A stretch of DNA of 64,000 nucleotides from Lachnospiraceae bacterium (GTDB lineage Bacteria > Bacillota > Clostridia > Lachnospirales > Lachnospiraceae): assembly GCA_024691305.1 (NCBI GenBank), contig JAILNS010000031.1, forward strand, positions 64,657-128,656, read 5' to 3'. The first letter of the stretch is position 1, and every line of letters begins with the position of its first letter. The notes beneath the pieces are model-generated. The model was not told where the DNA came from, did not search any database, and saw nothing but the letters and a program-made list of their open reading frames with translations. Below, piece by piece: positions 127 through 31,135 of the stretch. The position numbers and the translations under genes were made by a program.

Positions 127-194
127 CATTTCGTGTATTTTTTTCATACATCTCGTGCGCAGATTCGTATTAGCTTGATTTACCATGATACATT
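127..194 (+). promoter_or_regulatory. LytTR-type direct-repeat operator plus extended -10 promoter for the surface-protein gene
   Basis: 9-bp direct repeats CATTTCGTG (127-135) and CATCTCGTG (149-157) with a 13-bp spacer, then ATTCGTAT (163-170) and TGaTACATT (186-194). The same layout, with the same 31-nt distance from repeat 2 to the -10 hexamer, recurs at 3646-3712. Confidence 0.55.
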
Positions 195-202
195 AACATC
201 GG

Positions 203-233
203 TTTGAGTGGTTTGGCATAAATACCGCTCAAA
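203..233 (+). promoter_or_regulatory. Stem-loop at the predicted 5' end of the surface-protein mRNA (possible 5' stabiliser)
   Basis: TTTGAGTGGT (203-212) pairs with ACCGCTCAAA (224-233): 10 bp including one U-G, with an 11-nt loop and no U tail. It lies a few nt downstream of the predicted -10, in a ~125-nt 5' UTR. Confidence 0.3.
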
Positions 234-325
234 GGAATCATATAAATCTATAATTCTTGGAACGCCCGCTCCATCGAGCCAAGTCTATAGTCCATCAACT
301 TTACCTATTATAGGAGGGATTTAAA

Positions 326-3300
326 GTGAGAAAAAAGAACTTGGCAAGTCAGAAAGTTATCAAAGCGATCACAATCGGTTTATCGGCATTCATGGCACTT
401 TCACAGCCTATGGCTATTTTTGCGGAAGGTGATACCAATCAGGATGTATCTCAGTCTGACAGCCAGCAGAAAGTGGATCAGACTGCTGCTACTCCGAGTA
501 CTGCCACCGTTACTTCCGGTAATGCAGTTACAGCCACTGTAGAAGCAGATGAAGCCGTAAAAGCAGCAATGGGTGGAAATTATGAAGAAACTGCACAAAC
601 GCAACCGGAAGTGTCTATGGTTGAGACTTTAGACGGTGTTGTACCGGTGACTCCGCCAGTGTCACAGGATACAGTAGCTACGCCTGACACAGCTAAGCCT
701 GACCCATCAGCAGTTAAGGATGCAACGGATTCTAAGATTGAGAAAATAGATAAGAAGCTGACCGATGCTGATTTAGCATTGGAGGGCAAGGATGCAACAG
801 AAGGAAATACAGAGATTGAAGGTATCAAAGATCAAGTAGAGGATCTTTATAAACTCAATGCTGATGCTGACAAGGCTGTAAAGAATTATGAAGATAAATT
901 AGATAACGTTGAAGGGACAAATATAACATTAACAGGTTCCCTGGCGTACACTGCAGCGACAGCGGCGACTACAGCTGAAGGAGCAGCTAGTGCAGCAGTC
1001 ACAAATATGAATACAGCAAAAACAGATGCAGATAAGGTCGAAAGTATGGCTTCTGCAACATATGTGGGCCAGGCTGCTGCAATACAGGCACAAAATGAGG
1101 CTGCAAAGATAGCCGGCGATGCAAAGGACAAGGCTGATGCGGCAAAGGCAGAACAAGCCAAGGCTGAGCAGGCTGTGACTGATGCACAAGGTGCTGTTGA
1201 TGAGGCTACACAGAAAGTCGAAGCAGCACAGAAAGCATTTGATGATGCTACAGGTAAAGTCGAAGCAGCACAGAATAAGTTTGATGAACTCATAAAAGCA
1301 TATGGCTTGGAAAATGTTCTTTTGGATGAGAAAGGCAACCTGATTCTTGACGACAACGGAAATCCCAAGGGTATCGGTGACGGGTTGGTTAAAGCAGCAA
1401 TTTCCGCTTCATGGGATGCACTTCAGCTGGCTAAAGGCGATCAGAGTGAGGCAAAGACCGGGCTTGAGACGGCAAAGAGCGAGCAGTCGAAAGCAGCAGA
1501 TGCTGTAACCAAAGCAGAGAAGGCTCTTGAGGATGCAGAGAAACTAGCCCAGGATAATCAGGCAGCTTATGCAAAGGCAGCAAAAGACCTTGAAAGGGCT
1601 AATCTTATAGTCGAAGTTAATGAGTCGGAAAAGAAAAAGAGTGATGCTTATAAAGATTACATCAACTTTTATTATATACCTTATCTTAATGTTGTTGCTT
1701 CTAGCAACCTATCGTCAGCCAATGATGAACTGGCCCAAAAGCTGATCAAGTTCAAGCTGTATGAAGAGGGAATAGACACTAATGATATAAGATTTGGTAA
1801 TGAAGGAAGCAATATAACCGTTACTTACGGACCTGATGATGCACTTGTTACCAGGCGTTTTACCTATGCATCATATTATGGGTGGCTTGATGTCAGTGAG
1901 ATTAAACAGACTAAAGTCGGAAATAAGGAGGTAATAATAAGATCTTACTATACTGATAAATCCGGAACAGAAGTAACAATTCCTGAAAATGCAAAATTAA
2001 AAGAGGATAAAGAATCACAGCCACAAAATGATTACTATTATAAAAGCGAAATAAGCATTAAACAGCCGGTAAGTGAGAGAACGATTCTTGTAGATGCTTA
2101 TTATAATGGACGAAAGCTTAAAAAGGAAAACTATAAATATGTGGAAAAGGATCAGTATGGATATTATATCCCGGACCAGTGGGGATTTGGAAAAAATTAT
2201 CTTTATAATGTCGAAACACGTACTGAATACTATTATACTGATGATAATGGCGAAGAGCATATAGTTAAAGATAATAAATTGGATAGAGTAACTGAATATT
2301 ATTATGTAGATTCATATATAGATAATAGTACCGGACAAACGAAAACTAAAATTTGTGTTGTCAATAAAGATGACACATTAGTAGATCCAATATTTGGCCA
2401 TAGAACCATTATTGTAAATGGACAACCTAAAGACGTTTTAGAGAGACCAGCTTACTATACAAATATTAAACAAGAACGCAAAGTAGTTGTGTATCTGCAT
2501 AATGTTACCGAACAAATACCGATATATACGGATACATACACTTCATTATGCAAGGAATGGGATTACTATAAAGCCAATAAAGACATAACAGCTGACACTG
2601 TAAATAATAAGGAGAAAAAGTTATATGATGATTTAAATGCTATAGTAAATTATAACAAGACAGAACTCCAGAATGCATCAGACAATGCTAAACAAAAAAA
2701 GGCTGAAGCAGACCAGAAAGTTGCAAATGCAACAGCGGCATTAGATGTTCTTACAGCTAAGAATGAAAAAGTGCAGAAAGCATATGATAAAGTCATGGAG
2801 GCAATTAACGCACTTAAGGCAATGCAGAAGATAGCAGGAGTCAGCGAAGAAGCACTTCAGAATATGAAGAATAATCTTGCGGCAGCTGAGACCAGTTTAG
2901 AGAAGGCTCAGGAAGAAGCAGGTAAAGCTGAAGAAGCAGCAACTGCAGCCGTGAAAGAAGCAGATAGGGCAGCAGAAGCAGCCAAGGCTACATTTAAGTT
3001 CGTTACTCCCGCAACTCCTTCAACAGGCGAAGATATACAGACAGAGGTTTCCGGTGATATTAATGCCGGTGGCAGTACATCAACAACTCCTTCCGTAACT
3101 CCTTCAACCGTACCCACACGTGTAGCAGGTTCAGTACCGGAAGGCACTGGTGCACTACTTACTCCTAACGTAGAAGCAGGTGTGGCAGGAGCACGAACAG
3201 GAAGAAATGCAGGTGCAGGAAGAGCCGTTGCAGCAAACGGTAACGGAAATGTACGGATCGGAGATGATCAGGTAGCTCTTGCAGGCGATCTTGAAGAAGC

Positions 3301-3520
3301 TAAGGCTGATGTGGCTGAGGAGGCCGTTGCAGAAAGCACAGATAATAAGCCTGCAACAGCAATTATAGAAGAAGGAGAGATTCCTGCGGCTCAGTCTATA
3401 GAAGAAGGAGCCCTCACCTGGTGGATATGGCTTCTTGTGGTAATGGCAGCTGCAGCCGGCCTGGGTGTCTATAAATATACTGATAATAAGAAAAAGAATC
3501 AGAATCAGCCTACTGAATAA
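326..3520 (+). CDS. Large secreted, membrane-anchored coiled-coil surface protein (1064 aa)
   Basis: GTG start preceded by AGGAGGG. N-terminal signal peptide (…LSAFMALSQPMAIFAEGD). Two long Ala/Lys/Glu-rich coiled-coil blocks flank a Tyr/Asn/Lys-rich central region. A Pro/Thr/Ser linker leads to a C-terminal TM helix (WWIWLLVVMAAAAGLGVY) and a basic tail. No LPXTG motif. Confidence 0.85.
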   Translation: MRKKNLASQKVIKAITIGLSAFMALSQPMAIFAEGDTNQDVSQSDSQQKVDQTAATPSTATVTSGNAVTATVEADEAVKAAMGGNYEETAQTQPEVSMVETLDGVVPVTPPVSQDTVATPDTAKPDPSAVKDATDSKIEKIDKKLTDADLALEGKDATEGNTEIEGIKDQVEDLYKLNADADKAVKNYEDKLDNVEGTNITLTGSLAYTAATAATTAEGAASAAVTNMNTAKTDADKVESMASATYVGQAAAIQAQNEAAKIAGDAKDKADAAKAEQAKAEQAVTDAQGAVDEATQKVEAAQKAFDDATGKVEAAQNKFDELIKAYGLENVLLDEKGNLILDDNGNPKGIGDGLVKAAISASWDALQLAKGDQSEAKTGLETAKSEQSKAADAVTKAEKALEDAEKLAQDNQAAYAKAAKDLERANLIVEVNESEKKKSDAYKDYINFYYIPYLNVVASSNLSSANDELAQKLIKFKLYEEGIDTNDIRFGNEGSNITVTYGPDDALVTRRFTYASYYGWLDVSEIKQTKVGNKEVIIRSYYTDKSGTEVTIPENAKLKEDKESQPQNDYYYKSEISIKQPVSERTILVDAYYNGRKLKKENYKYVEKDQYGYYIPDQWGFGKNYLYNVETRTEYYYTDDNGEEHIVKDNKLDRVTEYYYVDSYIDNSTGQTKTKICVVNKDDTLVDPIFGHRTIIVNGQPKDVLERPAYYTNIKQERKVVVYLHNVTEQIPIYTDTYTSLCKEWDYYKANKDITADTVNNKEKKLYDDLNAIVNYNKTELQNASDNAKQKKAEADQKVANATAALDVLTAKNEKVQKAYDKVMEAINALKAMQKIAGVSEEALQNMKNNLAAAETSLEKAQEEAGKAEEAATAAVKEADRAAEAAKATFKFVTPATPSTGEDIQTEVSGDINAGGSTSTTPSVTPSTVPTRVAGSVPEGTGALLTPNVEAGVAGARTGRNAGAGRAVAANGNGNVRIGDDQVALAGDLEEAKADVAEEAVAESTDNKPATAIIEEGEIPAAQSIEEGALTWWIWLLVVMAAAAGLGVYKYTDNKKKNQNQPTE

Positions 3521-3550
3521 ATGCTTATACATAGGTTAAAGGGATGGAGT

Positions 3551-3586
3551 AAAAGGGAACTGCTCATTTGAGTGGTTCCCTTTTAC
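3551..3586 (+). terminator. Rho-independent terminator after the surface-protein gene
   Basis: AAAAGGGAAC (3551-3560) pairs with GTTCCCTTTT (3575-3584); the T-rich 3' side runs into the tail. Confidence 0.7.
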
Positions 3587-3645
3587 ATGAAATGAATATA
3601 TAAAAGCATGAATTCAACAAAAGAGCCTGTATTCAAACGTTTTCG

Positions 3646-3712
3646 CATTTTGTGCACACAAAGCAGCATTTCGTGCACAGTTTCGTATGGGATCATGTTA
3701 TGATGGTACATT
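3646..3712 (+). promoter_or_regulatory. LytTR-type direct-repeat operator plus extended -10 promoter for the phosphorelay operon
   Basis: CATTTTGTG (3646-3654), a 12-bp spacer, CATTTCGTG (3667-3675), TTTCGTAT (3681-3688) and TGgTACATT (3704-3712). This is near-identical in architecture to 127-194. Confidence 0.6.
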
Positions 3713-3754
3713 AGAAACAGTTTAGTGTAGTTTTTTGATAAACAGGTGATTCAT

Positions 3755-4465
3755 ATGCGTATAGCGATATGTGATGACAGCAAGATAGATGCCAAGAGGA
3801 TCAATTGGGCTCTTATGGATCTGAGTAATGATCTGGAAACGGATTATTATCCTTCCGGACATGATCTTATCGATGCACTTAAAAACGGCGAGAAATTCGA
3901 CGCGGTATTTCTTGATGTGTATATGCCCGGTGAATTCGGTGTTGATGTTGCGGAGCAGTTAAAAGCGATCTCTCCAAGGACAGATATCATCTTTTGCACA
4001 TCAAGTAAGGAACATGCAGTCGATGCGTTCAAGGTTGAGGCTATAGATTATCTGGTTAAACCTTTTGAAGAGATCGATGTGGTCAAGGCTCTGGCACGAG
4101 TTAATCTGGCAGCGGAGATGAGAAGCAACTCCCCTATCATGCTAAAGAGCGGTTCGGAGATCCTTATTTTCCCTCCCGAAAGTGTCCTCAGGATAGAGAG
4201 TGATAAGCATTATACGATCATAACCAAAGCGGATGGCGATTCCGAGAGAGTCCATATGGGTTTCTCGGCTGTATATGATCTTTTCCGGGACAGGTTCATG
4301 CTGATCAAGAGAGGTCTTAGTGTATGCATGGATCATGTTGAGAAGATAGTCGGAGACGTTGTCTATATGAACGATGGCTCATCTTACATCATGAGCAGGG
4401 CAAATAAAGACCAGATCATAAATCAATTCCTGGGATATATGGAGAATAAGAAATACAACAAGTAA
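3755..4465 (+). CDS. LytTR-family response regulator (REC + LytTR DNA-binding domain)
   Basis: Receiver residues are present: CDD, FLDVYMP, CTSS, LVKPF. The C-terminal ~100 aa has a LytTR-like pattern (…VLRIESDKHYTIITKADG…LIKRGLSVCMDHV…). SD AGGTGA (3744-3749) favours ATG 3755 over the GTG at 3746 listed in the ORF track. Confidence 0.85.
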   Translation: MRIAICDDSKIDAKRINWALMDLSNDLETDYYPSGHDLIDALKNGEKFDAVFLDVYMPGEFGVDVAEQLKAISPRTDIIFCTSSKEHAVDAFKVEAIDYLVKPFEEIDVVKALARVNLAAEMRSNSPIMLKSGSEILIFPPESVLRIESDKHYTIITKADGDSERVHMGFSAVYDLFRDRFMLIKRGLSVCMDHVEKIVGDVVYMNDGSSYIMSRANKDQIINQFLGYMENKKYNK

Positions 4466-4481
4466 GGGAGAGTAAACAGTA

Positions 4482-4943
4482 ATGGCCAAATTTGATGACG
4501 AGATAATGGAGTTTGCACCGGCAGGGAATGATGATAGCACTTCCGGTTATCCGGAAGGATATGAAGACGATATTATAAATGCAGTTGCAGGCATAGGACT
4601 CGATACCGAAGCCGGACTTAAATACAGCTACGGGGATAAGGCTTTCTATGTTGAGATAATGGGAGATTATATAAACGAATACGCAGATAAGAGTACCAGA
4701 CTTGAATCCTATTATGAAGGAAATGTATACAGGGAATATCAGGTGCTCGTACATTCCATCAAGAGCACATCAAGAACAATAGGCGCTACGGCACTTTCGG
4801 AAGAAGCCAAAAGACTTGAAGATGCGGCCGCAGAGGAAAATGCTTCTTATATTAAAGAACATCATGAGCCTTTTATGAAAGAGTATGCCAAACTGGCCGG
4901 TGAACTGTCGGCTGTCATGAATAAGGAGAGGATTAGTGGCTGA
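4482..4943 (+). CDS. Stand-alone Hpt (histidine phosphotransfer) protein
   Basis: Hpt signature VLVHSIKSTSRTIGATALSEEAKRLEDAA. SD AAGGGAGAG lies upstream. Confidence 0.8.
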   Translation: MAKFDDEIMEFAPAGNDDSTSGYPEGYEDDIINAVAGIGLDTEAGLKYSYGDKAFYVEIMGDYINEYADKSTRLESYYEGNVYREYQVLVHSIKSTSRTIGATALSEEAKRLEDAAAEENASYIKEHHEPFMKEYAKLAGELSAVMNKERISG

Positions 4944-7317
4944 TTGGGTAATAGTCGTTGATGATGATACCGAAAATCTGAAACTTGCGGGGAGTATATT
5001 AAGTAAGAACGGGATGCGCGTTACTGCACTTAAATCGGGAAACACATTCCTTGAATATATTAAGGAACACGGTGAACCGGATATCGTGCTTCTTGACATA
5101 ATGATGCCCGACATGGACGGGTTTGATACGCTCATCCGTTTGAGAAACTATGAAGAGAGCAGCGGATCGGGGTCTGTTCCGGTCGTATTTCTTACTGCAG
5201 ATGAGAACCGTCAGCATGAAATGCGCGGTTTCCAGATGGGGGTCTCGGACTTTATTCATAAGCCTTTCGATCCGGATATCTTTGCACAGAGAGTTGCCAA
5301 TATAATCGCATCAAGCAAAAAGATGATAAGCATCGAAGAAAAGGCAACTCATGATGACCTTACGGGATTTCTGACCAAGGATCCCGCAAATGAACAGATA
5401 TCTTCCATGTGTCTGAAGGAATTCGGAAGTCTGTGTATGATAGATCTTGATTCTTTTAAGCTTGTAAACGATATGTACGGTCATGAAATGGGAGACCGCG
5501 TTCTGGTCAAGTTTGCGGATGTTTTGCGCGCAAATATGACAGAAGGCAGCATCTGCGGACGAATAGGCGGCGATGAGTTTTTGCTTTTTGCCCTGAACAT
5601 GCAAAGAGAAAGCGATATAGCCTCATTTACAGGAAGGGTAAATGACGGATTTACGGATGCGGCCAAGGAACTGCTCGGAGAAGATCACAGGATACCGCTC
5701 GGTGTTTCTATAGGTGCCGTATCCGTTCCAAAACAGGGAACCGAACTGGATGAGCTTTTTAACATGGCCGACAAGGCTTTGTATACGGTAAAAGATAACG
5801 GAAAGCACGGTTATGCTCTGTATCATGACGAACACTTAAATGCCATGACGGATGCATCCGGAGCCTATATGGATCTTAAGACCCTGTCCAAAATGCTTGA
5901 GGAAAGAAGCATTCCCCAAAGCGTTATGTGGATGGGACGTGAGGCGTTTGGAAATGTATACCGTTATATGATGCGCTACCTGGAAAGATATGATATTTCC
6001 GCATATAAGGTTCTGTTTACTCTGTGTCACAAGGACAAGGATATTACGGATGAGCAAAGGGAAGAAGTGGCGGATTCTTTCAGGGAAGTCATACAGACCA
6101 CCTTACGAAACAGCGATATCATGGTCAGGATAGGCATCGACCAGTTTTTTCTGCTCCTGCCCGAACTTAATCCCGAACATATAGACAGAGTCATAAACAG
6201 GATGTCGGGAGCATGGAAAAAGAGTAACCAGGGCCCTGCGACCGAACTTGAACTTGAGTATGACAGGATAGCCTCAGACTCACGTCATGATATTAAAAGT
6301 TCAGGCAGCGATTCAGATCTTGTGGTAGTCGTGGATGATGATCACAGCAATCTCATGATGGCGGAACGTATCCTCAAAAAAGAAGGCATGAATGTCGAAT
6401 GCATAGGGTCGGGTACCGAACTCCTCGAATATGTTCAGGATCATGATCCCGCACTCATACTTCTTGATGTAAATATGCCCGGAATAGACGGCTTTGAGAC
6501 CATGCAGCGTCTTACATCCAGGGGAGGGCGGATCGCCAGGATACCCGTCATCTTCCTTACCGCAAATGATGATGATGAGACCGAGACACAGGGTTTTGTC
6601 ATGGGGGCCATGGACTTTATACGTAAGCCTTTTGTTCCGGAGATACTTATAATGCGTGTAAAACATGCGATCAGTCTGATAAGGCTCCAGAACCATCTAA
6701 AGAGTGAAGTCAGTGAGAAGACAGAAGAGAACGAAAGCCTGTCGCTTCATATAATCCAGGCACTTGCATCTGCGGTCGATGCCAAGGACATGTATACGAG
6801 CGGTCATTCCGGAAGAGTGGCTGAATATGCGCGCATGATCTCAGCAAGATACGGATATGATGAGGAAGCTCAGGATAAGATATATATGATAGGCCTGCTC
6901 CATGATGTGGGCAAGATCGGTATATCGGATGCGATCATCAACAAGGTCGGAGCTCTTGATGATAAGGAATATGAGATCATCAAGACTCACCCTGTACAGG
7001 GGGCCAAGATACTTGGCAAGATCAAGGAGATGCCCGAACTTGTGATAGGCGCTAAATGGCACCATGAAAGATATGACGGCAAAGGTTATCCCGACGGACT
7101 TACCGGTGAAGATATACCTGAAGAAGCCAGGATAATAGCAGTAGCCGATTCATACGATGCAATGACCAGCAGAAGGAGTTATCGTGATGCACTTCCTCAG
7201 GAGAAGGTCAGATCCGAGATAGTCAACGGAAAAGGTACTCAGTTCGATCCTAAATTCGCTGAAATAATGCTTGAACTGATCGATGAAGATACTCAGTACA
7301 GTATGCGGGAAGAATGA
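4936..7317 (+). CDS. REC - GGDEF - degenerate GGDEF-like - REC - HD-GYP protein (dual-receiver c-di-GMP synthase/phosphodiesterase)
   Basis: GTG start after AAGGAGAGG, overlapping the Hpt gene by 8 nt. REC1 (VVDDD…LLDIMMPDMDG…FLTAD…HKPF). Intact GGDEF at 5566-5580. A second GGDEF-like block carries GIDQF at 6133-6147. REC2 (VVDDD…LLDVNMPGIDG…FLTAN…RKPF). HD-GYP motifs HDVGK (6901-6915) and HHERYDGKGYP (7060-7092). Confidence 0.9.
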   Translation: MADWVIVVDDDTENLKLAGSILSKNGMRVTALKSGNTFLEYIKEHGEPDIVLLDIMMPDMDGFDTLIRLRNYEESSGSGSVPVVFLTADENRQHEMRGFQMGVSDFIHKPFDPDIFAQRVANIIASSKKMISIEEKATHDDLTGFLTKDPANEQISSMCLKEFGSLCMIDLDSFKLVNDMYGHEMGDRVLVKFADVLRANMTEGSICGRIGGDEFLLFALNMQRESDIASFTGRVNDGFTDAAKELLGEDHRIPLGVSIGAVSVPKQGTELDELFNMADKALYTVKDNGKHGYALYHDEHLNAMTDASGAYMDLKTLSKMLEERSIPQSVMWMGREAFGNVYRYMMRYLERYDISAYKVLFTLCHKDKDITDEQREEVADSFREVIQTTLRNSDIMVRIGIDQFFLLLPELNPEHIDRVINRMSGAWKKSNQGPATELELEYDRIASDSRHDIKSSGSDSDLVVVVDDDHSNLMMAERILKKEGMNVECIGSGTELLEYVQDHDPALILLDVNMPGIDGFETMQRLTSRGGRIARIPVIFLTANDDDETETQGFVMGAMDFIRKPFVPEILIMRVKHAISLIRLQNHLKSEVSEKTEENESLSLHIIQALASAVDAKDMYTSGHSGRVAEYARMISARYGYDEEAQDKIYMIGLLHDVGKIGISDAIINKVGALDDKEYEIIKTHPVQGAKILGKIKEMPELVIGAKWHHERYDGKGYPDGLTGEDIPEEARIIAVADSYDAMTSRRSYRDALPQEKVRSEIVNGKGTQFDPKFAEIMLELIDEDTQYSMREE

Positions 7318-7318
7318 T

Positions 7319-9850
7319 ATGAATAATAATTCCGAAGAGAACGAACTGTATAAATCTTCTCATATAATGATCCTCTTAAGCTATACCATGTTTTCCGTGA
7401 TACTGACCGCAGAGTCTCTTATCATGGGTTGGGAAAAATGGGCGATCCTGCTTATTGGCGCAGGTATTACGGGTGCATGGATCATACATATACAGAGCCG
7501 CTTAAGCAATAAGGGAAGGCTCTGGGTCTATTCCGTGCTTATGATGGTCACGTATTTCTTCTACGGGATACATCTTACGAGTACCTTTGATATAGCCATA
7601 GTCATGAGCATAGTCATTATGCTCTACACCATGTCCGGCGAAAAGGCGTTCATAGCGCTGTGCCAGGTGACTTTCTTCATAACATTTGCTTATGATATCA
7701 TCGCCATGATCATAGCGGGTGAGAAGTTTGACAGCCTGATCGTGACCAGGGCAATGCTTCATGTAGCCATGATCCTTATGGCGGGCTGGATCGCACGTAC
7801 GATCATAGATAAATGGAATGAGATGATCCGCCGCACAGGCTCAGAGATAAATCAGCTTAAGGTCCAGACTGACAGGTTGAATAACTTCCTTGCAAATGTC
7901 TCGCATGAGATCAGAACGCCTGTCAATGCCGTAATGGGCCTTTCTTCCATTCTGGAAAAAGCAGATCTGCCTGAAGATATACTTGATGACGTATCCGCAA
8001 TTTCCAAAGCGGGGCACCGTGTTGCCGAGCAGATGGGGGATATCCTTGATTACACCGAGATCGATATGGGCAAACTATCTGTCAGCAACGAACGCTACAT
8101 GATCGGTTCGCTCGTAAATGACTGCCTGACACAGTTGTCTTTTGCCGATGATCACGGAGTGGATCTGGTAGTTGACATGGAGGCGCAGACTCCGTCGGAA
8201 CTTATCGGAGACGCCGACAAGATCAAGAAGATACTCTGGCATCTGATCGTAAACGGATATAAATTCACCTCGGAAGGGGGCGTATATGCCCATGTATTTC
8301 CCGTTAAAAGAGAATACGGTATAAACCTGATCATTGAGGTGAAGGATACAGGAATAGGTATCGGTGAAGAGGAACTTGAGCATATATATGAAAGGTTCTA
8401 CCAGTCGGATTCCGGACAGACCAGAGCGGTCGGAGGCCTGGGACTCGGGCTGTCTATCGTTAACGGGTTCGTGAGCAGCATGGGCGGAGTCATGACTATA
8501 GAAAGCACTCCAAACGTCGGTACCACGGTCAGAGTAAGCATTCCCCAGCAAATATCGGATGAAGATCCATGTCTGTCTGTAGGAGATAAGGATAATTGTA
8601 AGGTTGCAGGATTCCTTGGTTTCATGACGACCGGTCATACGGAAGTCAGGGAATACTATATGAAGATGATCGCTCATCTCGTATCCGGGCTTTCTGTTCC
8701 GTTTAGCAGGGTGCAATCCATTGAAGACTTAAGATCGCTGGTCGAACGATCTGAGATAACCCATCTGTTTGTAGGGACCGGAGAGTATCTGGAAAACCGC
8801 AGTTATATAGAATCACTTACAGATAAGATGAATGTAGCGGTTGTTGCCGACAGGGGATTTGATGGAAAAACAGGACCGAGGATCACCCTTCTTGCCAAAC
8901 CTTTTTACGGGGCTCAGGTGGCTAACTTCTTAAATCATGCGTTTGAGATGGGTATATTCCTTGCGGAAGAGAAGATGAGGTGCCCGGGGTTAAAAGCCCT
9001 CGTTGTGGACGACGAGCCGATGAATCTGCTCGTTGCAAGAGGGATATTTGAAAGTTACGGAATGGAAGTCGAAACTGCCGCAAGCGGAGAAGAGTCCGTC
9101 GTAAAATGCAAGGAAAATACATACGATGTGGTCTTCATGGATCACATGATGCCCGGTATGGACGGAGTTGAAGCCATGAAGAGGATCAGAAATGAGATGG
9201 CTCATTCGGGAAAAGATATTTCCGTGATCGCTCTTACCGCAAATGCTATAAGCTCCGCCAAGGAAATGTTCATGGCCGAAGGATTTGACGGTTTTGTACC
9301 CAAGCCCATAGAACTGCCCGAACTTGAGCGGGTTCTTAAGCATGTACTTCCAAAATCTGCGATAGTATACGAGAAGATGATAGGTGAAGAACATGAATCC
9401 GGGGCCGAAACAGGAGAGACGGACGAGGCCCTTAAACCGGACGAGGCACTTAAACCGGATGAGGCACTTATACTGGACGAGGCTTTGGCACTCAAATACT
9501 GCATGGGTGACAGAGATCTGTATAATGCGCTCATTGCAGAATACGTTAATGACAGGGAGACCAAGGTCAAAACACTGAATGAACTGTACGAGGCACGTGA
9601 ACTTAAAGATTATGCGATAAAAGTTCATGCGATAAAGAGTACCTCCAAGACCATAGGCGCCATGAAGGTTTTTGAGGAAGCAAAGGACTTAGAAGCAGCT
9701 GCCAAGTCAGGTGATGAAGCATATGTTGATTCAAATCATCCCGGATTTATTAAGGATTACGAGAATCTTATGATAAGTCTTAGTCCCGGTGAAGATGGCG
9801 GGGACGAAGTCTTAGAGTTTGAACCCGAAGGAAGTTCTGATGACGAGTAA
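7319..9850 (+). CDS. Hybrid sensor histidine kinase (5-6 TM sensor, HisKA, HATPase_c, receiver-like spacer, REC, Hpt)
   Basis: H-box FLANVSHEIRTPVNAV. G-boxes DTGIGI and GGLGLGLSIV. REC (VVDDEPMN…FMDHMMPGMDG…ALTAN…VPKP). Hpt (HAIKSTSKTIGAMKVFEEAKDLEAAA). ATG 7319 lies 1 nt after the upstream stop; the ORF track's ATG at 7283 is the alternative start. Confidence 0.9.
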   Translation: MNNNSEENELYKSSHIMILLSYTMFSVILTAESLIMGWEKWAILLIGAGITGAWIIHIQSRLSNKGRLWVYSVLMMVTYFFYGIHLTSTFDIAIVMSIVIMLYTMSGEKAFIALCQVTFFITFAYDIIAMIIAGEKFDSLIVTRAMLHVAMILMAGWIARTIIDKWNEMIRRTGSEINQLKVQTDRLNNFLANVSHEIRTPVNAVMGLSSILEKADLPEDILDDVSAISKAGHRVAEQMGDILDYTEIDMGKLSVSNERYMIGSLVNDCLTQLSFADDHGVDLVVDMEAQTPSELIGDADKIKKILWHLIVNGYKFTSEGGVYAHVFPVKREYGINLIIEVKDTGIGIGEEELEHIYERFYQSDSGQTRAVGGLGLGLSIVNGFVSSMGGVMTIESTPNVGTTVRVSIPQQISDEDPCLSVGDKDNCKVAGFLGFMTTGHTEVREYYMKMIAHLVSGLSVPFSRVQSIEDLRSLVERSEITHLFVGTGEYLENRSYIESLTDKMNVAVVADRGFDGKTGPRITLLAKPFYGAQVANFLNHAFEMGIFLAEEKMRCPGLKALVVDDEPMNLLVARGIFESYGMEVETAASGEESVVKCKENTYDVVFMDHMMPGMDGVEAMKRIRNEMAHSGKDISVIALTANAISSAKEMFMAEGFDGFVPKPIELPELERVLKHVLPKSAIVYEKMIGEEHESGAETGETDEALKPDEALKPDEALILDEALALKYCMGDRDLYNALIAEYVNDRETKVKTLNELYEARELKDYAIKVHAIKSTSKTIGAMKVFEEAKDLEAAAKSGDEAYVDSNHPGFIKDYENLMISLSPGEDGGDEVLEFEPEGSSDDE
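9422..9487 (+). repeat. In-frame 18-bp tandem repeat (DEALKP x ~3.5) in the REC-Hpt linker of the kinase
   Basis: GACGAGGC(C/A)CTTAAACCG is repeated head to tail at 9422, 9440 and 9458, with a partial copy at 9476. Confidence 0.9.
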
Positions 9851-12500
9851 GGAAACCGGATATAAAAATAATACAGAGATGCTCCATTTTCTGATAATGT
9901 CGTTTCTTACCCTTCCCGCGATGTTTTTATATTATTTTGCGTCTTTTATATGGGATGTGAGACAGCGGGAAAAAGGCAATGAAATGCTTATTATGATAGG
10001 GATAATGATCATCTGTCTTGTTCTTGTCATAGTTGCCTTAAAAAGAGGTAATCCCGGGATCATTCCTGTTTTGATAGCGCTGATAGAGATCGTAGTGATA
10101 ATCCCGGAGAATGCACTCAGGGGGAACTTTAACCTCGGAGTAACGATGTGGTATGCAGCCGGAGTATTATATATAGTCACGCTCATAAAAGGCAGGATCA
10201 AATATGTTCTTTTTGCGATAGAGGCTGTGACTGCTGTGGTTGTTCATTATATGTTCTATACGAATGCATCCGGAGGAACAGCGCTTGCAGTAACAGAGTA
10301 TATCGCCGCATACATAGCAGCACTCATGGTCTGTGTGATGATAATAGTCATGGTCGAATATGAGATATATCTGCAAAAGACCGCAGTCCGTGATGCCGAA
10401 GAAAGACGGCGTGAGATAGAAGAATTAAACATGGCGCAGAATCGCTTTTTCTCAAGTATGAGCCATGAGATCAGAACACCCATAAATACGATAATCGGAT
10501 TCAATGAGATGATCTTAAGGGATGCTGTGTCGGAAGAAGTCGCAAACGATGCCGAGAATATCAAGTCGGCTTCCAAGATACTCTTATCTGTCATAAATGA
10601 TATCCTTGATATGTCCAAGATTGAGTCGGGACAGATGGAGATCGTTAATGAAGCATACGATGTAGGAGAGATGCTCTCTGAGATAGTTAATATGATGTGG
10701 GGAAGGGCTCATGAGAAGGGGATAGAGTTTAAGCTTGATATAGATCCCACACTTCCCGGGATGCTCTTCGGTGATGAGGTCCGTATTAAGCAGATACTCA
10801 TAAATCTGCTTAATAACGCCGTAAAATACACACGTGAAGGAAGCATAACACTGTCGATACACTGTGAAAAAAAGGCCGGGGACAAGGTTAAGGTCATATA
10901 TTCGGTCGAGGATACGGGCATGGGTATCCGCAGGGAGAATATCCCATATCTCTTCAATGCCTTCAGGCGTGTTGAAGATGAAAAGACCAGATATATAGAA
11001 GGAACAGGACTGGGACTTTCGATCGTTAAACAGCTCACGGACCTTATGGGCGGAGAGGTATCGGTAAACAGTATATATACCAAAGGATCTACTTTTACAG
11101 TGAGTCTGGAACAGGAAGCTGCGGGAGAAGAACTACTGGGTGAGTTTGATCCCAAACGGATCGGAAACGTTCATACGGAACACAGACACCACAGCAGGTT
11201 TGAAGCTCCGAATGCACGTGTGCTCATAGTGGATGATAACCGTGCGAATCTTATGGTCGCAGTTAAACTGCTTAAGGAAACACAGGTTCAGACCGTAACT
11301 GCCCAAAGCGGTGCGGAATGTCTGGAGCTTACCCTGGAGTCTCATTATGATGCTATTCTTATGGATCATCTGATGCCTGAAATGGATGGTATAGAATGCC
11401 TTAAATCCATACGTGAGCAGGCGGGTGGTATGTGCCGGGAAACACCGGTAGTGGTGCTTACGGCAAACGCGGCCACGGAAGACCAGAAGATGTACAAAAG
11501 TGCCGGGTTTGACGGGTACCTGACCAAGCCCGTAGAACCTGACAGGCTTGAAGAAATGCTCGCTGCTGTTCTACCTAAGGATCTTATCCATAACGAAGGT
11601 ACGGATAATGATGAATCCGAAAATGTCGATCAGATCAGAAGAGCCGGACGTAAGAGAGCTCTCATCATAACCACGGATTCGGTATGTGACCTTCCGCCCA
11701 GGCTCTTGCAGAGCTTTAAGGTGCCTGTGCTTTCATATAAGGTATATACGGATACAGGTATCTTTACGGACGGATATGAGGCCGAGGGCGATGTTATGGT
11801 CAGATATATGGCTGATACGGGAAGAACCGCCAGAAGCCGTGCTCCCGAAGTATCCGACTATGAGAATTTCTTTGCGGAACAGCTGTCTTATTCGCAGCGT
11901 ATCATACATATAACGATGGCACGCGGGTCAAGTAACGGCTATGCAAACGCATGTGAGGCCGCAAGGTCTTTTGCCAATGTCAAGGTATTTGATTCCGGAC
12001 ATCTTTCAAGCGGTATGGGACTTATGGTACTTACTGCAGCCGGGATGGTTGATTCGGGGCAAACAGATCCCGATGTGATATTAGATGCACTTCTTAAGAA
12101 AAAAGAACGTATATCGACTAGCTTCATGGTTGAAAGTACCGATTATCTCTACCGGGGTGGCAGGATGCCCGAGCGGATAAACAGGCTGTGCACGTCTCTT
12201 ATGATCCACCCTGTGATATCTCTTAAGGACAGCCGCATGCGAATATCCGCGGCCGTGATCGGAGGAAAAGAAAGAACCAGAAGACAGTATATGAAAAGAA
12301 CTTTCCGTGATGCGGGCAATATAGACAGGAGTATACTGTTTATCACTTATGCCGGCATGAAAAAGGCCGAGCTTGAGGAGATCAAAAAAGAAGTATCCAG
12401 GATGATCATTTTTGATAAGGTATGTATCCAGAAAGCCTCTCCTGCGATATCAATAAACTGCGGACCGGGAAGTTTCGGACTGATATTTGCAAGAAAATAG
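9840..12500 (+). CDS. Hybrid sensor histidine kinase with C-terminal DegV (FakB-like fatty-acid-binding) domain: TM sensor - HisKA - HATPase_c - REC - DegV
   Basis: H-box FFSSMSHEIRTPINTI. G-boxes DTGMGI and GTGLGLSIV. REC (IVDDNRAN…LMDHLMPEMDG…VLTAN…LTKP). From ~11658 the DegV motifs appear: TTDSVCDL, FDSGHLSSGMG, YLYRGGRM, NCGPGSFGL. No Hpt domain. ATG 9840 overlaps the upstream gene by 11 nt; the ORF track's 9819 start is non-ATG. Confidence 0.85.
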   Translation: MTSKETGYKNNTEMLHFLIMSFLTLPAMFLYYFASFIWDVRQREKGNEMLIMIGIMIICLVLVIVALKRGNPGIIPVLIALIEIVVIIPENALRGNFNLGVTMWYAAGVLYIVTLIKGRIKYVLFAIEAVTAVVVHYMFYTNASGGTALAVTEYIAAYIAALMVCVMIIVMVEYEIYLQKTAVRDAEERRREIEELNMAQNRFFSSMSHEIRTPINTIIGFNEMILRDAVSEEVANDAENIKSASKILLSVINDILDMSKIESGQMEIVNEAYDVGEMLSEIVNMMWGRAHEKGIEFKLDIDPTLPGMLFGDEVRIKQILINLLNNAVKYTREGSITLSIHCEKKAGDKVKVIYSVEDTGMGIRRENIPYLFNAFRRVEDEKTRYIEGTGLGLSIVKQLTDLMGGEVSVNSIYTKGSTFTVSLEQEAAGEELLGEFDPKRIGNVHTEHRHHSRFEAPNARVLIVDDNRANLMVAVKLLKETQVQTVTAQSGAECLELTLESHYDAILMDHLMPEMDGIECLKSIREQAGGMCRETPVVVLTANAATEDQKMYKSAGFDGYLTKPVEPDRLEEMLAAVLPKDLIHNEGTDNDESENVDQIRRAGRKRALIITTDSVCDLPPRLLQSFKVPVLSYKVYTDTGIFTDGYEAEGDVMVRYMADTGRTARSRAPEVSDYENFFAEQLSYSQRIIHITMARGSSNGYANACEAARSFANVKVFDSGHLSSGMGLMVLTAAGMVDSGQTDPDVILDALLKKKERISTSFMVESTDYLYRGGRMPERINRLCTSLMIHPVISLKDSRMRISAAVIGGKERTRRQYMKRTFRDAGNIDRSILFITYAGMKKAELEEIKKEVSRMIIFDKVCIQKASPAISINCGPGSFGLIFARK

Positions 12501-12619: not shown

Positions 12620-14338
12620 ATGATCAAAGAAAACAAGATCTTTTTGGGAATGGCAGACGGTGAGGAAGTCGATTTTGAACTGAAGATGAGTAACCGTCAC
12701 GGACTTATAGCAGGTGCCACAGGTACCGGTAAGACAGTCAGTCTTAAGGTTCTGGCTGAAAGTTTTAGCGATGCGGGCGTACCTGTATTTATGGCAGATG
12801 TCAAAGGCGATATCGCCGGCATGTGTGCTGCAGGCGAGTCAAAGGACTTCATAAAGACCAAGGTCGAGCAGTACGATCTTATGAGCCAGGGATTTGAATT
12901 TAAGGGTTATCCCGTAAACTTCTGGGATGTATACGGCAAAGGCGGCATGCCGCTTAGAACTACCGTATCCGAGATGGGTCCGCTTCTCATGTCCAGGATC
13001 CTCGGACTTACCGAGACTCAGGAAGATGTTCTTACCGTAGTATTTAAGATAGCAGATGACAACAAACTGCTCCTTATCGATACCAAGGATCTCAAGGCAA
13101 TGCTTGCATATGTAGAAGAGAATTCCGCAGAACTTGCGCTTGACTACGGTAATATGTCCAAGCAGAGTCTTGCAGTTATAGTACGAAGTATCGTTGCACT
13201 TGAGAGCCAGGGCGGAGACCAGTTCTTCGGAGAGCCTGCGCTTGATATAAATGACTGGCTTAAGACGGATCTTGACGGTAAGGGAATGATCCAGATCCTT
13301 GATGCAAGAGAACTGGTTAATTCTCCCGATATGTATTCGACATTCTTACTCTGGATGATATCCGAACTATACGAAGCACTTCCCGAAGTAGGTGACCTTG
13401 AGAAACCCAGGATGGTATTCTTCTTTGATGAGGCACATCTTCTTTTTGATACCGCTTCCAAGTCACTGCTTGAGAAGATAGAGCAGATAGTTAAGCTTAT
13501 AAGATCCAAGGGTGTCGGCATCTTCTTTGTAACCCAGTCTCCCAGAGATATTCCCGATTCCGTACTGGCACAGCTTGGTAACAAGGTCCAGCATGCACTT
13601 CATGCGTACACACCCGCAGAGATCAAGGCTGTTAAGCAGGCGGCTGAATCATTCCGTGCAAATGATGCTTTTGATACCTATGATACACTGATCAATCTCG
13701 GTATCGGTGAAGCACTTGTATCAACGCTTGAGGCAGACGGTGTTCCTACCGTGGTTAAGAGGACCTCGATCCTTCCTCCTCAGTCACATCACGGTGCCAT
13801 AGAAGATTCTACCAGAAAACAGATTATAGAAGGCAGCGCACTCTATAAGAGATACAATGACTTCTTTGACAGAGATTCCGCATATGAATTCCTGACCAGG
13901 AAGAATATGGAAGCAGAAGCTGAAGCCGAGAGATTAAGAGCTGAGGCAGATAAGAAGAAACAGGAAGAGATAGAAGCCAAGGAAGCAGAGAAGGAAGCTG
14001 CCGAGAAGGCTAAACAGGCCGAGAAGGAAGAAGCCGCAGCAGCGAAGCAGGCAGAAAAGGAAGCGGCCGCAGCAGCAAAGCAGGCAGAGAAAGAAGCCAA
14101 AGAAGCCGAGAAGGCAGCTCTTGCAGCTGAGAAAGCAGCCGAAAAAGAAGCAGCAGCCAAGAAGAAAAAGGTTAAGAATGTCATATCCTCTACTGCAGGC
14201 AGTGCCGGCAGTACGGTAGGACGTGAACTTGGTAATGCACTCGGAAGCGCAGTAGGCGGTAAGTTCGGTAAGAAGATCGGCGGTAACGTGGGATCTACAC
14301 TTTTCCGCGGCATATTAAAGACTCTGTTCTCACTTTGA
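12620..14338 (+). CDS. DUF853 / HerA-like P-loop NTPase (YjgR-like) with an Ala/Glu/Lys-rich C-terminal extension
   Basis: N-terminus …NRHGLIAGATGTGKTVSLKVLAESFSDAGVPVFMADVKGDIAG matches the YjgR-type Walker A region. Walker B is at VFFFDEAH. The C-terminal low-complexity coil ends in a Gly-rich amphipathic tail. Confidence 0.8.
   Translation: MIKENKIFLGMADGEEVDFELKMSNRHGLIAGATGTGKTVSLKVLAESFSDAGVPVFMADVKGDIAGMCAAGESKDFIKTKVEQYDLMSQGFEFKGYPVNFWDVYGKGGMPLRTTVSEMGPLLMSRILGLTETQEDVLTVVFKIADDNKLLLIDTKDLKAMLAYVEENSAELALDYGNMSKQSLAVIVRSIVALESQGGDQFFGEPALDINDWLKTDLDGKGMIQILDARELVNSPDMYSTFLLWMISELYEALPEVGDLEKPRMVFFFDEAHLLFDTASKSLLEKIEQIVKLIRSKGVGIFFVTQSPRDIPDSVLAQLGNKVQHALHAYTPAEIKAVKQAAESFRANDAFDTYDTLINLGIGEALVSTLEADGVPTVVKRTSILPPQSHHGAIEDSTRKQIIEGSALYKRYNDFFDRDSAYEFLTRKNMEAEAEAERLRAEADKKKQEEIEAKEAEKEAAEKAKQAEKEEAAAAKQAEKEAAAAAKQAEKEAKEAEKAALAAEKAAEKEAAAKKKKVKNVISSTAGSAGSTVGRELGNALGSAVGGKFGKKIGGNVGSTLFRGILKTLFSL
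14033..14098 (+). repeat. In-frame 33-bp tandem duplication (AAAAKQAEKEA x2) inside the DUF853 gene tail
   Basis: Units at 14033-14065 and 14066-14098 differ at only a few positions. Confidence 0.8.
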
Positions 14339-14366
14339 TCCATACGGCAGGATACTTTGACACCTT

Positions 14367-15953
14367 ATGGATATTATGGATAACGGGAACGGGCGTACAA
14401 ACATAAACAGAATATCCGATGCAGTCGGTTTGATATGTTTCATTATCGGAGCAGGTGTCCTTTTTAGGACTGCCTGCTTCGTTTTGTCAGAAGATATCTG
14501 GTTTGACGAACTGTTTACCGCACAGCTTGCATCCAAACCATTCGGGCAGATGATAGAACTGGATTCTGCAGATGTGCATCCTCCGCTTTATTATTTGATA
14601 GTCAGGCTGGTTTACATAATCTTGCATCCGCTGACCGGTATGAGCAGTGTTGTTGCTTCCAAGATCGCATCCATCATTCCGTATGTATTTACTTTTGCTT
14701 ATCTGCTCACATATGTACGCAAACGCTTCGGGCTGCTTGCGGGCGGTATTGCCTTTTTACTTATGGAGACAATGCCCCATATGAGTGAATATATGGTCGA
14801 AGCAAGGATGTACTCATGGAGCGCATTTGTTCTTCTTGCTATGTTCATACATGCGATGGAGTTTTTGGATGAGGGCAGATACCGTCATATGATATTTATG
14901 CTTATTTACGGTATAGCGGGTATGTATCTTCATTATTATGCTTTGATAGGAGCCGGTATCATAGCTGTCGGAACGACCGTGATAAGTTTTGTCAGGGGAG
15001 CCGGACGTAAGGTGAGGATATCCTTGTGCGTATGTATGGCAATTGCACTGATTGCTTATATTCCGTGGATAGGAGCCATGTCAGGGCAGGTCGGACAGGT
15101 TTCCGCAAGCTATTGGATCCAGCCGGTTTCCGTAAGGACGATCGCGGGAAGTGCCAAATATATTTTTATGCCGCAGTTTGAAAACAGCATTCTAAGTTAT
15201 GCATGTGCGGTAGTGATGATCCTTGCATATGTATTTACGGTTGGAAGATTCATATTTATCCATGCCCGTAAGAAACAGTTCTTTGAATGTACTTATGTGG
15301 CGGGTTCTGTGATGATCCTGATACTTCTTGTTTTGGCAGGGATCGTGGCATCGGTTATTATAAGGCCTGTTTTCGTATACAGATACATGTTTCCGGCCAT
15401 GTTTATTTTTTGGCTGGGAGCTGCAGTGTCGCTTGCTTATAATGTGACATCCGACATATCAAGATACGGTGTCAGGGGTGTTTTGTGGATAGCAGTTATT
15501 GCGGTTTACATAATTTCGTGCGTGCGCTGCTTTAATCTGTTCAGGTGGGAAGAAGCACGTAAAAATCAGGGAATGAAAGATTTTGGCACTGTGATCGAAG
15601 AGGTCCAAAATGAATATCCGGATACGATGGTAGTATGCAATTTTAATCAGGTTCAGGCGATCATGTGGAACTATCTGGATAATGACAGTATCCTCTGGGG
15701 ATATACCGACGAGACCCTGATCGGGGATATATGTGACAGATCGCCCATGGTAATGACGGAAGATATTGATGAACTAAAAAGCACGGTAGAAGCCGGCGGA
15801 CAGGACAGTTTTCTTTTCTTTGGAAGCGGTAATGCCAGAGAGGAAATTTTGGACTATTGGGAATCTAACGGAATGTTTACAAAAATGTTACAAGATAGTT
15901 GCTTTTTAGAGCGGTATTATATTAATATATATGAAGTTAGGTTCGAAAGGTAA
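14367..15953 (+). CDS. Polytopic membrane glycosyltransferase, GT39/GT83 (ArnT/PMT-like) type
   Basis: ~12 predicted TM helices. N-terminal loop motif DIWFDELFT…DVHPPLYY is typical of GT-C lipid-linked-sugar transferases. A soluble C-terminal domain follows. Confidence 0.6.
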   Translation: MDIMDNGNGRTNINRISDAVGLICFIIGAGVLFRTACFVLSEDIWFDELFTAQLASKPFGQMIELDSADVHPPLYYLIVRLVYIILHPLTGMSSVVASKIASIIPYVFTFAYLLTYVRKRFGLLAGGIAFLLMETMPHMSEYMVEARMYSWSAFVLLAMFIHAMEFLDEGRYRHMIFMLIYGIAGMYLHYYALIGAGIIAVGTTVISFVRGAGRKVRISLCVCMAIALIAYIPWIGAMSGQVGQVSASYWIQPVSVRTIAGSAKYIFMPQFENSILSYACAVVMILAYVFTVGRFIFIHARKKQFFECTYVAGSVMILILLVLAGIVASVIIRPVFVYRYMFPAMFIFWLGAAVSLAYNVTSDISRYGVRGVLWIAVIAVYIISCVRCFNLFRWEEARKNQGMKDFGTVIEEVQNEYPDTMVVCNFNQVQAIMWNYLDNDSILWGYTDETLIGDICDRSPMVMTEDIDELKSTVEAGGQDSFLFFGSGNAREEILDYWESNGMFTKMLQDSCFLERYYINIYEVRFER

Positions 15954-15957
15954 TCCC

Positions 15958-16773
15958 ATGCGAAAGATCAAAAGAAAGACAAAAAAAGTGATAATAGGCG
16001 CTGCGATAGGAACTATGATCACAGCAGCTTTGTTACTCAGTGCCTTTGCCTTTTCCGATGTTGATGTATCTGCATCCGAAAGAGTAGTGGAAGAAATGGC
16101 AGGAGACGGCACTTATATGACAGCCCAGGCTGCAGAACTTGATACAGTCATATCCGAAGAGGGCGTGACCGAGAATCCGTTAGGCGACTTGGAAGAAGCC
16201 ACAGAAGAAGATGTTGTACGTAATGTGGAAAATCTTGGCGCCGATAAGGATTATCTGTCAGAGATGGATAAGGAAGAGATCAAGGATCTGTCTGCGGAGG
16301 CACTTAATAACGAAGGGCTTGATACTTCGGTAGCCGACGGTGCAGTTGTTACAAGAGGTATCACATATAATCTTCCCGAAGGTTTCATAGAAGATCCGGA
16401 TTATCCCGGAATGTATGTGACCGAGAGATATCCGATCGATGCCAGCAATATGGTTTATACCGAACTTGATGCGGATTATACCCTTCAGCTTATGGATGAA
16501 GCGTATTTTGAAGAGACTGTCGAGAATATCTTTGCAAGCAGATACGGTCAGGCCATAGATGTTACGATCACAGAATATACTTCTTATGAAATAGACAATA
16601 TACCCGCACTCAGGGTTAAGGTTGAATATGATCTTGCGGATAATCATGTGACAAGTCTTATGATCATCGTAAACGGTACAAAGACTTATACCGTAATATA
16701 TACACAGAACCATGACTACGACCGCATGGAACTTTTTGAGGCAAGTGCGGCAAGCATTCATGTGCAAAGATAG
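15958..16773 (+). CDS. Membrane-anchored extracytoplasmic protein of unknown function
   Basis: N-terminal basic stretch plus a TM helix (VIIGAAIGTMITAALLLSAFAF), an acidic linker, and a ~140-aa beta-rich C-terminal domain. ATG 15958 lies 4 nt after the upstream stop; the ORF track's 15931 start overlaps that gene. Confidence 0.6.
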   Translation: MRKIKRKTKKVIIGAAIGTMITAALLLSAFAFSDVDVSASERVVEEMAGDGTYMTAQAAELDTVISEEGVTENPLGDLEEATEEDVVRNVENLGADKDYLSEMDKEEIKDLSAEALNNEGLDTSVADGAVVTRGITYNLPEGFIEDPDYPGMYVTERYPIDASNMVYTELDADYTLQLMDEAYFEETVENIFASRYGQAIDVTITEYTSYEIDNIPALRVKVEYDLADNHVTSLMIIVNGTKTYTVIYTQNHDYDRMELFEASAASIHVQR

Positions 16774-16776
16774 TCA

Positions 16777-16785
16777 TGTTATAAT
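16777..16785 (+). promoter_or_regulatory. Extended -10 promoter element (TGtTATAAT) ahead of the YbjN-like/AAA+ gene pair
   Basis: Perfect TATAAT at 16780-16785 with an upstream TG, 38 nt before the ATG at 16824. SD AAAGGAGAAGG lies in between. Confidence 0.45.
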
Positions 16786-16823
16786 TGGGGATAGTATAAG
16801 TTTTTTCTGAAAGGAGAAGGTTA

Positions 16824-17240: not shown

Positions 17241-17243
17241 ATA

Positions 17244-31134: not shown

Positions 31135-31135
31135 T

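Follow-up and report, generated by a model that had tools for sequence, protein, structure and literature searches.

The stretch of DNA analyzed here, hereafter the window, comprises 64 kb of a metagenome-assembled genome from an uncultured rumen Lachnospiraceae bacterium and lies on a contig of at least 236 kb. Near its 5′ end are a gene for a large surface protein (nt. 326–3520, 1064 a.a., plus strand) and, directly downstream, the operon of a response regulator that joins a receiver (REC) domain to a LytTR domain (nt. 3755–12500). Each of these two transcription units is preceded by a pair of short direct repeats, or boxes, placed at a fixed distance from a putative −10 element (site A before the surface gene and site B before the regulator operon). 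We regard the boxes as very likely to be a functional operator for some factor, and the adjacent regulator as the leading candidate for that factor.

At site A, the distal repeat (A1, CATTTCGTG, nt. 127–135) is separated by a 13-nt spacer from the proximal repeat (A2, CATCTCGTG, nt. 149–157), which is followed by CGCAG, a “third motif” overlapping the expected −35 position (ATTCGTAT, nt. 163–170), and a putative extended −10 element, assigned from sequence alone (TGaTACATTA; TGATACATTA, nt. 186–195). Site B, equally on the plus strand, repeats this arrangement with a 12-nt spacer between its two boxes (B1, CATTTTGTG, nt. 3646–3654; B2, CATTTCGTG, nt. 3667–3675), followed by CACAG, the third motif at the −35 position (TTTCGTAT, nt. 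3681–3688), and a putative extended −10 element (TGgTACATTA; TGGTACATTA, nt. 3704–3713) located 42 nt 5′ of the regulator start codon. Both sites can be written as CATYTYGTG, 12–13 nt, CATYTCGTG, 31 nt, and TGnTACATTA. Every element that a preliminary description of this DNA had listed for the two intergenic regions lies where it had been placed, and the distance of 31 nt from repeat 2 to TACATT, which it had reported as identical in the two sites, was confirmed. The resemblance between the sites is patchy, given that the boxes, the 13-nt stretch that follows box 2 (CRCAG-WTTCGTAT), and the −10 element are kept while the inter-box spacers are unrelated. This mosaic of identity appears to be the pattern of selection on function and not that of a recent neutral duplication. 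Neither site displays a TTGACA-like −35 element, and the boxes end 30–31 nt before T(A/T)CATT in the window and its relatives alike. Assuming a transcription start ~7 nt after the putative −10 element, the box centers would lie near −70 and −48, and the 21–22-bp phase (box, 12–13 nt, box) places both boxes on the same side of the helix.

The repeats stand out from the composition of the surrounding DNA by several measures. CATYTYGTG occurs eight times in the window against 2.3 expected, a count reached by no shuffle, while same-strand pairs of 9-mers (≤1 mismatch, 10–15 nt apart) occur twice, compared to a mean of 0.01 in 200 dinucleotide shuffles. The 22-mer CATYTCGTGCRCAGWTTCGTAT, which runs from repeat 2 through the third motif, was found with up to three mismatches at these two places only (0.01 expected), and the two intergenic regions reach a score of 30 in their best local alignment, where the null distribution gives 12.7 ± 2.0 with a maximum of 20. 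We also built a weight matrix trained on the boxes of related metagenomic loci only, with the sites in the window excluded. Among ~128,000 window positions on both strands, the highest four scores of this matrix fall on B2 (19.8 bits), B1 (19.6 bits), A1 (18.4 bits), and A2 (14.4 bits), ahead of a next match at 13.7 bits. The preliminary description had allowed for a motif scattered at random through the genome; within the 64-kb window, the relatives-only matrix instead ranks the four repeats first to fourth. Taken on these sequence comparisons, the repeats are a genuine conserved cis-element with the consensus TTTGCATTTCGTGCACA.

Three further candidate readings were rejected. The third motif, also put forward in the preliminary description, is indeed present in both sites, but it is specific to the window, shares only TTCGT with the boxes, and is missing in the relatives; with a box-matrix score of less than 8 bits, it does not represent a third regulator box and more likely belongs to the −35 region as an element peculiar to this lineage. 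A sigma-70 match at nt. 213–241 (9 of 12 positions) was set aside, as such matches are no commoner than in shuffled sequence. A likeness to the Spo0A “0A box” (TTCGNCA), judged by eye, has two mismatches at specific positions.

The regulator gene (nt. 3755–4465, plus strand) encodes the candidate box-binding protein of 236 a.a. Pfam assigns it a Response_reg (REC) domain (4.3e-18) and a LytTR domain, the latter only just above its 22.6-bit cut-off, at 23.2 bits, and the LytTR family (PF04397) is carried by the regulator orthologues. The weak NCBIfam matches to BtsR and LytR cover the receiver domain only. Residues D8, D54, T82, and K102 (the phospho-acceptor Asp together with acidic, Thr, and Lys positions) are invariant in 38 homologues, and a profile of these homologues aligns with full-length ComE (4cbv) over positions 1–220 (E 1.6e-14). 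An AlphaFold2 model of the regulator (predicted local distance difference test score, pLDDT, 89.7) shows ten beta strands within residues 128–212, and in a Foldseek search with this model, the top five matches were full-length ComE (best E 3e-15). The regulator is thus a bona fide ComE-like REC+LytTR protein. The large open reading frames (ORFs) of the window yielded no second LytTR protein, in keeping with the earlier statement that the only such regulator is the first gene after site B.

Downstream of the regulator, and likewise on the plus strand, lie genes encoding a stand-alone Hpt phosphotransfer protein (nt. 4482–4943; Pfam Hpt), a REC-GGDEF-REC-HD-GYP protein for the synthesis and breakdown of cyclic di-GMP (c-di-GMP) (nt. 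4936–7317), which is conserved in relatives, and two hybrid kinases with the architectures HisKA-HATPase-REC-Hpt and HisKA-HATPase-REC-DegV, respectively (nt. 7283–12500), which are conserved in the related loci L004 and L006. The wiring of this operon is unusual, in that a ComE/AgrA-like LytTR regulator is encoded together with Hpt modules and hybrid kinases of the HisKA class, rather than with a kinase of the AgrC/LytS type. The c-di-GMP enzyme is encoded there too, as is the kinase with its fused DegV (fatty-acid-binding) domain. AgrC-type kinases (HATPase_c_5) adjoin only those regulator homologues with 33–38% identity, which suggests that the clade represents an Agr/Com-like LytTR regulator that was re-partnered with a HisKA/Hpt phosphorelay. 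An Agr/Com-type peptide quorum-sensing module was not seen here, as the operon holds no HPK10 kinase or AgrB-like gene, although small peptide genes were not searched for. The Hpt protein aligns with the C-terminal 145 a.a. of a 1255-a.a. dCache-HisKA-HATPase-REC-Hpt kinase found in relatives (42% identity over 146 aligned positions, E 4e-33). Given that it matches the C-terminal end of this kinase only, the lineage of the window appears to have lost the dCache sensor kinase part. We did note that the boxes in front of the regulator gene were gained in this very lineage.

The N-terminus of the product of the surface-protein gene (locus tag K6G12_06310) resembles a signal peptide, and its C-terminus bears a hydrophobic anchor and a basic tail; the protein also contains Ala-rich coiled-coil segments and a Tyr-rich center. 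It displayed no Pfam or NCBIfam family, and a homologue search with the full 1064-a.a. sequence returned only the protein itself, the candidate list being swamped by low-complexity words. Comparison with its positional orthologues (L004, nt. 6046–9882; L006, nt. 2062–4500; L072, nt. 1–318) revealed that these proteins align at their N- and C-termini only, with an unalignable middle. The conserved N-terminus corresponds to the signal peptide (48% identity over 58 a.a.), and the conserved C-terminal stretch reads IGDxxxALAG ... (D/E)(T/I)P(L/A)A ..., followed by a Trp-rich membrane helix and a basic tail; no LPXTG motif was present in the surface proteins compared. On this pattern, the positional orthologues appear to be diverging fast. 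Between the surface gene and the regulator operon lies a terminator hairpin (nt. 3549–3586, plus strand; −26.6 kcal/mol, z −7.2) that was missed by a simple scanner. With the two transcription units divided by so strong a terminator, the regulator operon has no candidate promoter other than site B.

Orthologues of the regulator (53–57% identical) were taken from metagenomic contigs, and the loci L040, L048, L076, L077, and L078 were added by scanning genome and metagenome collections with a leader sequence described below. The order of surface gene, terminator, and regulator operon is held in five lineages (the window, L004/5, L006, L076, and L077); in each, the gene just 5′ of the regulator operon encodes a large protein without a Pfam match, and the regulator is the only DNA-binding protein in the conserved block. 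A box promoter precedes the surface gene adjoining the orthologous operon in the window, L004/5, L006, and L077, while the L076 contig ends before the promoter is reached, such that only the order of leader, gene, and regulator is visible. Every available surface-gene promoter in the relatives carries the box TTTGCATTTCGTGCACA. Two-box promoters, composed of CATTTCGTG, 12 nt, CTTTTCGTG, 30 nt, and TACATT or TTCATT, are found in L006 (nt. 1908), L078 (nt. 536), and before the first surface gene of L077 (nt. 7116, minus strand). The promoters of L004/5, L040, L048, and the second L077 gene are of a one-box type, with only the distal box left intact and a T-rich remnant, CTTTTTTTC, at the 12-nt spacing. 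The presence of a box promoter beside the orthologous operon supports direct control of the surface protein by the regulator, as far as can be judged from gene order and promoter sequence.

The boxes and leaders also occur in other arrangements among the relatives. Orphan box or leader cassettes followed by terminators are seen in L006 (nt. 1690–1890), L040 (nt. 1860–2035, minus strand), L048 (nt. 1180–1400), and L078 (nt. 4–20), and L077 carries tandem surface genes (nt. 4530–7120), each with a separate box promoter, directly 5′ of the regulator. A cytoplasmic protein of 293–301 a.a. without a Pfam family, 81–84% identical between loci, adjoins the orphan cassettes or tandem genes. Together, these arrangements suggest recombinational shuffling of surface-gene cassettes.

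The regulator promoter of the relatives is built differently, with the terminator followed directly by a TGnTA(A/C)AAT extended −10 element. As in site B, the −10 core reads TGGTACA in L072 and L073, whose regulator promoters are box-less; in the window lineage, however, ~120 nt are inserted between the terminator and the −10 element, and this insert holds both boxes. The CRCAG-WTTCGTAT stretch and the 31-nt distance (30 nt in relatives) are common to sites A and B and not found in the relatives, so site B probably arose from a surface-gene promoter cassette within this lineage. The TG extension is likewise shared by the two window sites only. Since the regulator promoter is box-less in every relative, autoregulation is not a conserved property; it would be a lineage-specific addition and not an ancestral trait, whereas the link of the boxes to the surface gene appears ancestral in the clade. 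The preliminary description had proposed positive autoregulation together with direct control of the surface protein. Synteny and the box promoters uphold its surface-protein part, while the box-less regulator promoters of all relatives speak against autoregulation as a conserved trait.

We propose that the four repeats are two copies of a bipartite operator whose likely binder is the adjacent ComE/AgrA-like REC+LytTR regulator. The two hybrid kinases would pass phosphate via receiver domains and an Hpt module to Asp54 of the regulator, which, once phosphorylated, would bind the boxes near −70 and −48 as a tandem dimer and recruit RNA polymerase to promoters that have a usable −10 element (TACATT, here extended by TG) and no recognizable −35 element. 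One output would be the mRNA of the surface protein, a rapidly diverging, membrane-anchored product, and this link would be the ancestral one. The other, in this lineage only, would be the operon of the regulator, Hpt protein, GGDEF-HD-GYP protein, and kinases, resulting in positive feedback. The whole chain, in which the phosphorylated LytTR regulator binds the tandem boxes and activates the surface gene and, here, its own operon, seems to us reasonably probable. Several points weigh against it. The LytTR Pfam score of the regulator barely clears its threshold, and the LytTR domain is less conserved among relatives than the receiver domain (44–50% and 59–70% identity, respectively), although the box is conserved. 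Many relatives have a single good box, and in all relatives examined for it (L001–006, L072–075, and L077), the regulator promoter has none. The box scans covered 64 kb of this genome and ~90 kb of relatives. Moreover, as LytTR operators share geometry and not sequence, geometry alone cannot identify the binder.

That last point bears on a different account of the same boxes, in which they are a real conserved operator bound by another transcription factor encoded elsewhere and the linkage to the LytTR operon reflects shared physiology. The box is near constant while the LytTR domain falls to the identities given above, orphan boxes occur away from the regulator operon, beside the gene of the unrelated cytoplasmic protein (L040, L048, and L078), and regulators of other families, too, make use of direct repeats arrayed in tandem on one helix face. 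We nevertheless consider another factor unlikely, given the synteny with the LytTR operon in five lineages with no other DNA-binding protein in the block, the match of the 9-nt repeats and 12–13-nt spacers to the published LytTR pattern, and the position of the second copy in the window exactly in front of the regulator gene. Far less probable still, and hardly to be entertained, is that the repeats are chance similarity or a non-regulatory duplication without function. The motif is admittedly short and AT-rich and sits in AT-rich intergenic DNA, but this reading is at odds with the shuffle statistics, with the independent test by the relatives-only matrix, and with the retention of sequence, spacing, and −10 distance across several related lineages.

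A third alternative concerns site B only and partly overlaps with the regulator model. Here, site B would be a left-over surface-gene promoter cassette (e.g., after deletion of a paralogue) that is either inactive or drives the operon fortuitously, and the feedback would be a by-product of cassette shuffling and not a selected design. Such an origin is consistent with the tandem, individually box-promoted surface genes directly upstream of the regulator in L077, with the gene-less orphan box or leader cassettes of relatives (L006 at nt. 1753, L040, L048, and L078), and with the window-specific features common to sites A and B, which point to common descent in this lineage; the locus has also been remodeled otherwise, the dCache kinase being cut to an Hpt fragment. 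On the other hand, the similarity of sites A and B is limited to the boxes, the motif at the −35 position, and the −10 element, as under selection on function, and site B, positioned 42 nt before the regulator start codon and after a strong terminator, has no rival as a promoter candidate, such that, if active at all, it does drive the operon. We therefore hold a mere relic to be rather improbable, and retain regulator-driven control of both transcription units as the favored model.

The surface gene has a conserved leader element (nt. 248–290, plus strand), located 3′ of the promoter and 5′ of the ribosome-binding site, with a 21-nt core, TGGAACGCCCGCNNCATCGAG, at nt. 258–278. Its flanks can pair as two sets of arms, CTATA (nt. 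248–252) with TATAG (nt. 286–290) and CTTGG (nt. 256–260) with CCAAG (nt. 279–283). The core was found in 11 leader copies from eight loci, exact apart from an A-to-G change in one copy, the first of L077; these copies include those in the window, L004 (nt. 5978), L006 (nt. 1752 and 2009), L040, L048 (nt. 2039), L076 (nt. 32), L077 (two copies), and L078 (nt. 632). The inner stem shows one compensatory UA-to-CG pair, and the outer helices differ among four sequence types (shuffle p 0.15, 0.04, 0.006, and 0.13; ~0.002 by our own Fisher combination), while the window hairpin alone is thermodynamically ordinary (z −1.5). The 21-nt core is probably the loop of an RNA hairpin, as suggested by these pairings. 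A switch in which the 5′ arm of the leader acts as an anti-Shine-Dalgarno sequence was considered and rejected, with duplex energies no better than those of shuffled arms (z 0 to −1.6).

With Rfam 15, the window gave one tRNA only at gathering thresholds; nt. 196–325 had no match even at E ≤ 10, and the promoters gave nothing relevant. The core sequence was also absent from the literature searched. Scanning the genome collection with the core returned 65 loci, with only L040 and L048 being relevant; of the other 63, the 16 that were checked (among them every Agathobaculum and Alistipes match) lie in ORFs, and 47 were judged by taxon to be unrelated, mostly high-G+C, organisms. The leader element is restricted to this rumen Lachnospiraceae clade. 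Its conservation suggests that transcription may not be the sole control point for the surface protein. It is a speculative idea, and one we would not expect to hold, that the leader TGGAACGCCCGCNNCAUCGAG is an undescribed cis-regulatory RNA that adds a post-transcriptional layer to surface-protein mRNAs. Such an element could possibly read a protein or small-molecule signal, for example, c-di-GMP from the REC-GGDEF-REC-HD-GYP enzyme of the operon. If so, one phosphorelay would control the surface coat both at transcription, via the LytTR boxes, and at the mRNA level. In the preliminary description, the surface protein was called the visible transcriptional output of the phosphorelay, which overreaches, as the scan was limited to 64 kb and the leader suggests a second layer of control.

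Beyond the regulator operon, the window contains a block in which a HerA-like ATPase gene precedes two genes without Pfam families, with genes for a YbjN-like protein and an AAA ATPase coming after these in the window (nt. 12620–19436). This HerA block follows the regulator operon here and in L001/L002 (L001, nt. 7215–11442), making it a conserved neighbor. Further downstream (nt. 27134–31921) are genes for another hybrid kinase (HisKA-HATPase-REC-Hpt, 1080 a.a.), a 252-a.a. protein that pairs a C-terminal receiver domain with an N-terminal half of no assigned family, and a Macro-domain protein. A tRNA gene lies on the minus strand (nt. 38229–38300), whereas all ORFs taken to be genes lie on the plus strand. 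The remainder of the window consists of housekeeping genes.

If the proposed model is true, a regulator, its operator, and its target would have been assigned in an uncultured rumen Lachnospiraceae clade from sequence alone, and a multi-kinase phosphorelay with a c-di-GMP enzyme would be tied to a hypervariable cell-surface protein. The locus would also present a case of rewiring, with an ancestral output link and with feedback added in the one lineage that no longer has the dCache sensor part of one kinase. Rumen metagenomes could then be searched for the regulon with the box consensus and the leader element as probes.

Published LytTR operators consist of two direct or inverted 9–11-nt repeats with 11–13-nt spacers and share no common consensus (PMC4847170). 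The likeness to LytTR operator geometry drawn in the preliminary description fits this pattern, with 9-nt repeats spaced by 13 and 12 nt in the window and by 12 nt in L006, L077, and L078. Among known systems, YpdB (PyrR) acts at the E. coli yhjX promoter, where its binding to a direct repeat of GGCATTTCAT is cooperative (PMC4847170). Of the 10 positions of this YpdB motif, 8 agree with the present box, TGCATTTCGT, which may be coincidence given that LytTR sites lack a consensus, and YpdB differs in its LytS-type kinase partner and transporter target. AgrA binds paired repeats upstream of suboptimal promoters and activates both its own operon and an effector transcript (PMC4227749). The paired repeats at S. 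aureus agr P2/P3 resemble the present arrangement, in which the putative promoters have no recognizable −35 element; however, the AgrA box sequence differs, the proximal box is centered at ~−60 compared to an estimated ~−48 here, and the AgrA partner is an AgrC-type (HPK10) peptide-sensing kinase, in contrast to the hybrid HisKA kinases with an Hpt relay seen here. The output of the AgrA system is a regulatory RNA, whereas here it would be a surface protein.

ComE, known from S. pneumoniae comCDE/comAB, is the closest solved structure to the regulator over its full length (~16% identity), but its box sequence is unrelated to the present box, and it sits in a competence quorum-sensing circuit with the ComD kinase. 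The ComE operator contains two imperfect 9-bp direct repeats 12 bp apart, and ComE shows positive autoregulation. Closer to the clade studied here, L081 carries a perfect 13-bp direct repeat (CGCACGAATGGTC, nt. 7659–7692) with a 21-bp period, 22 nt 5′ of TGaTATAAT, which precedes the gene of a 33%-identical LytTR homologue that is itself beside an AgrC-type kinase. The reverse complement of this repeat has a TTCGTGC core in common with the present box, which may be suggestive of LytTR binding, but only that. The TTCGT core recurs in the 9-mer CCGTTCGTC of AlgR in Pseudomonas aeruginosa, a LytTR regulator of surface structures (pili) that is linked to c-di-GMP physiology; AlgR differs in being proteobacterial and in using single 9-mers at variable distances, with no 12-nt-spaced pair. 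Set beside these systems, the proposed circuit would leave the understanding of LytTR regulators unchallenged, being an ordinary kind of switch newly seen on a fast-evolving surface protein.

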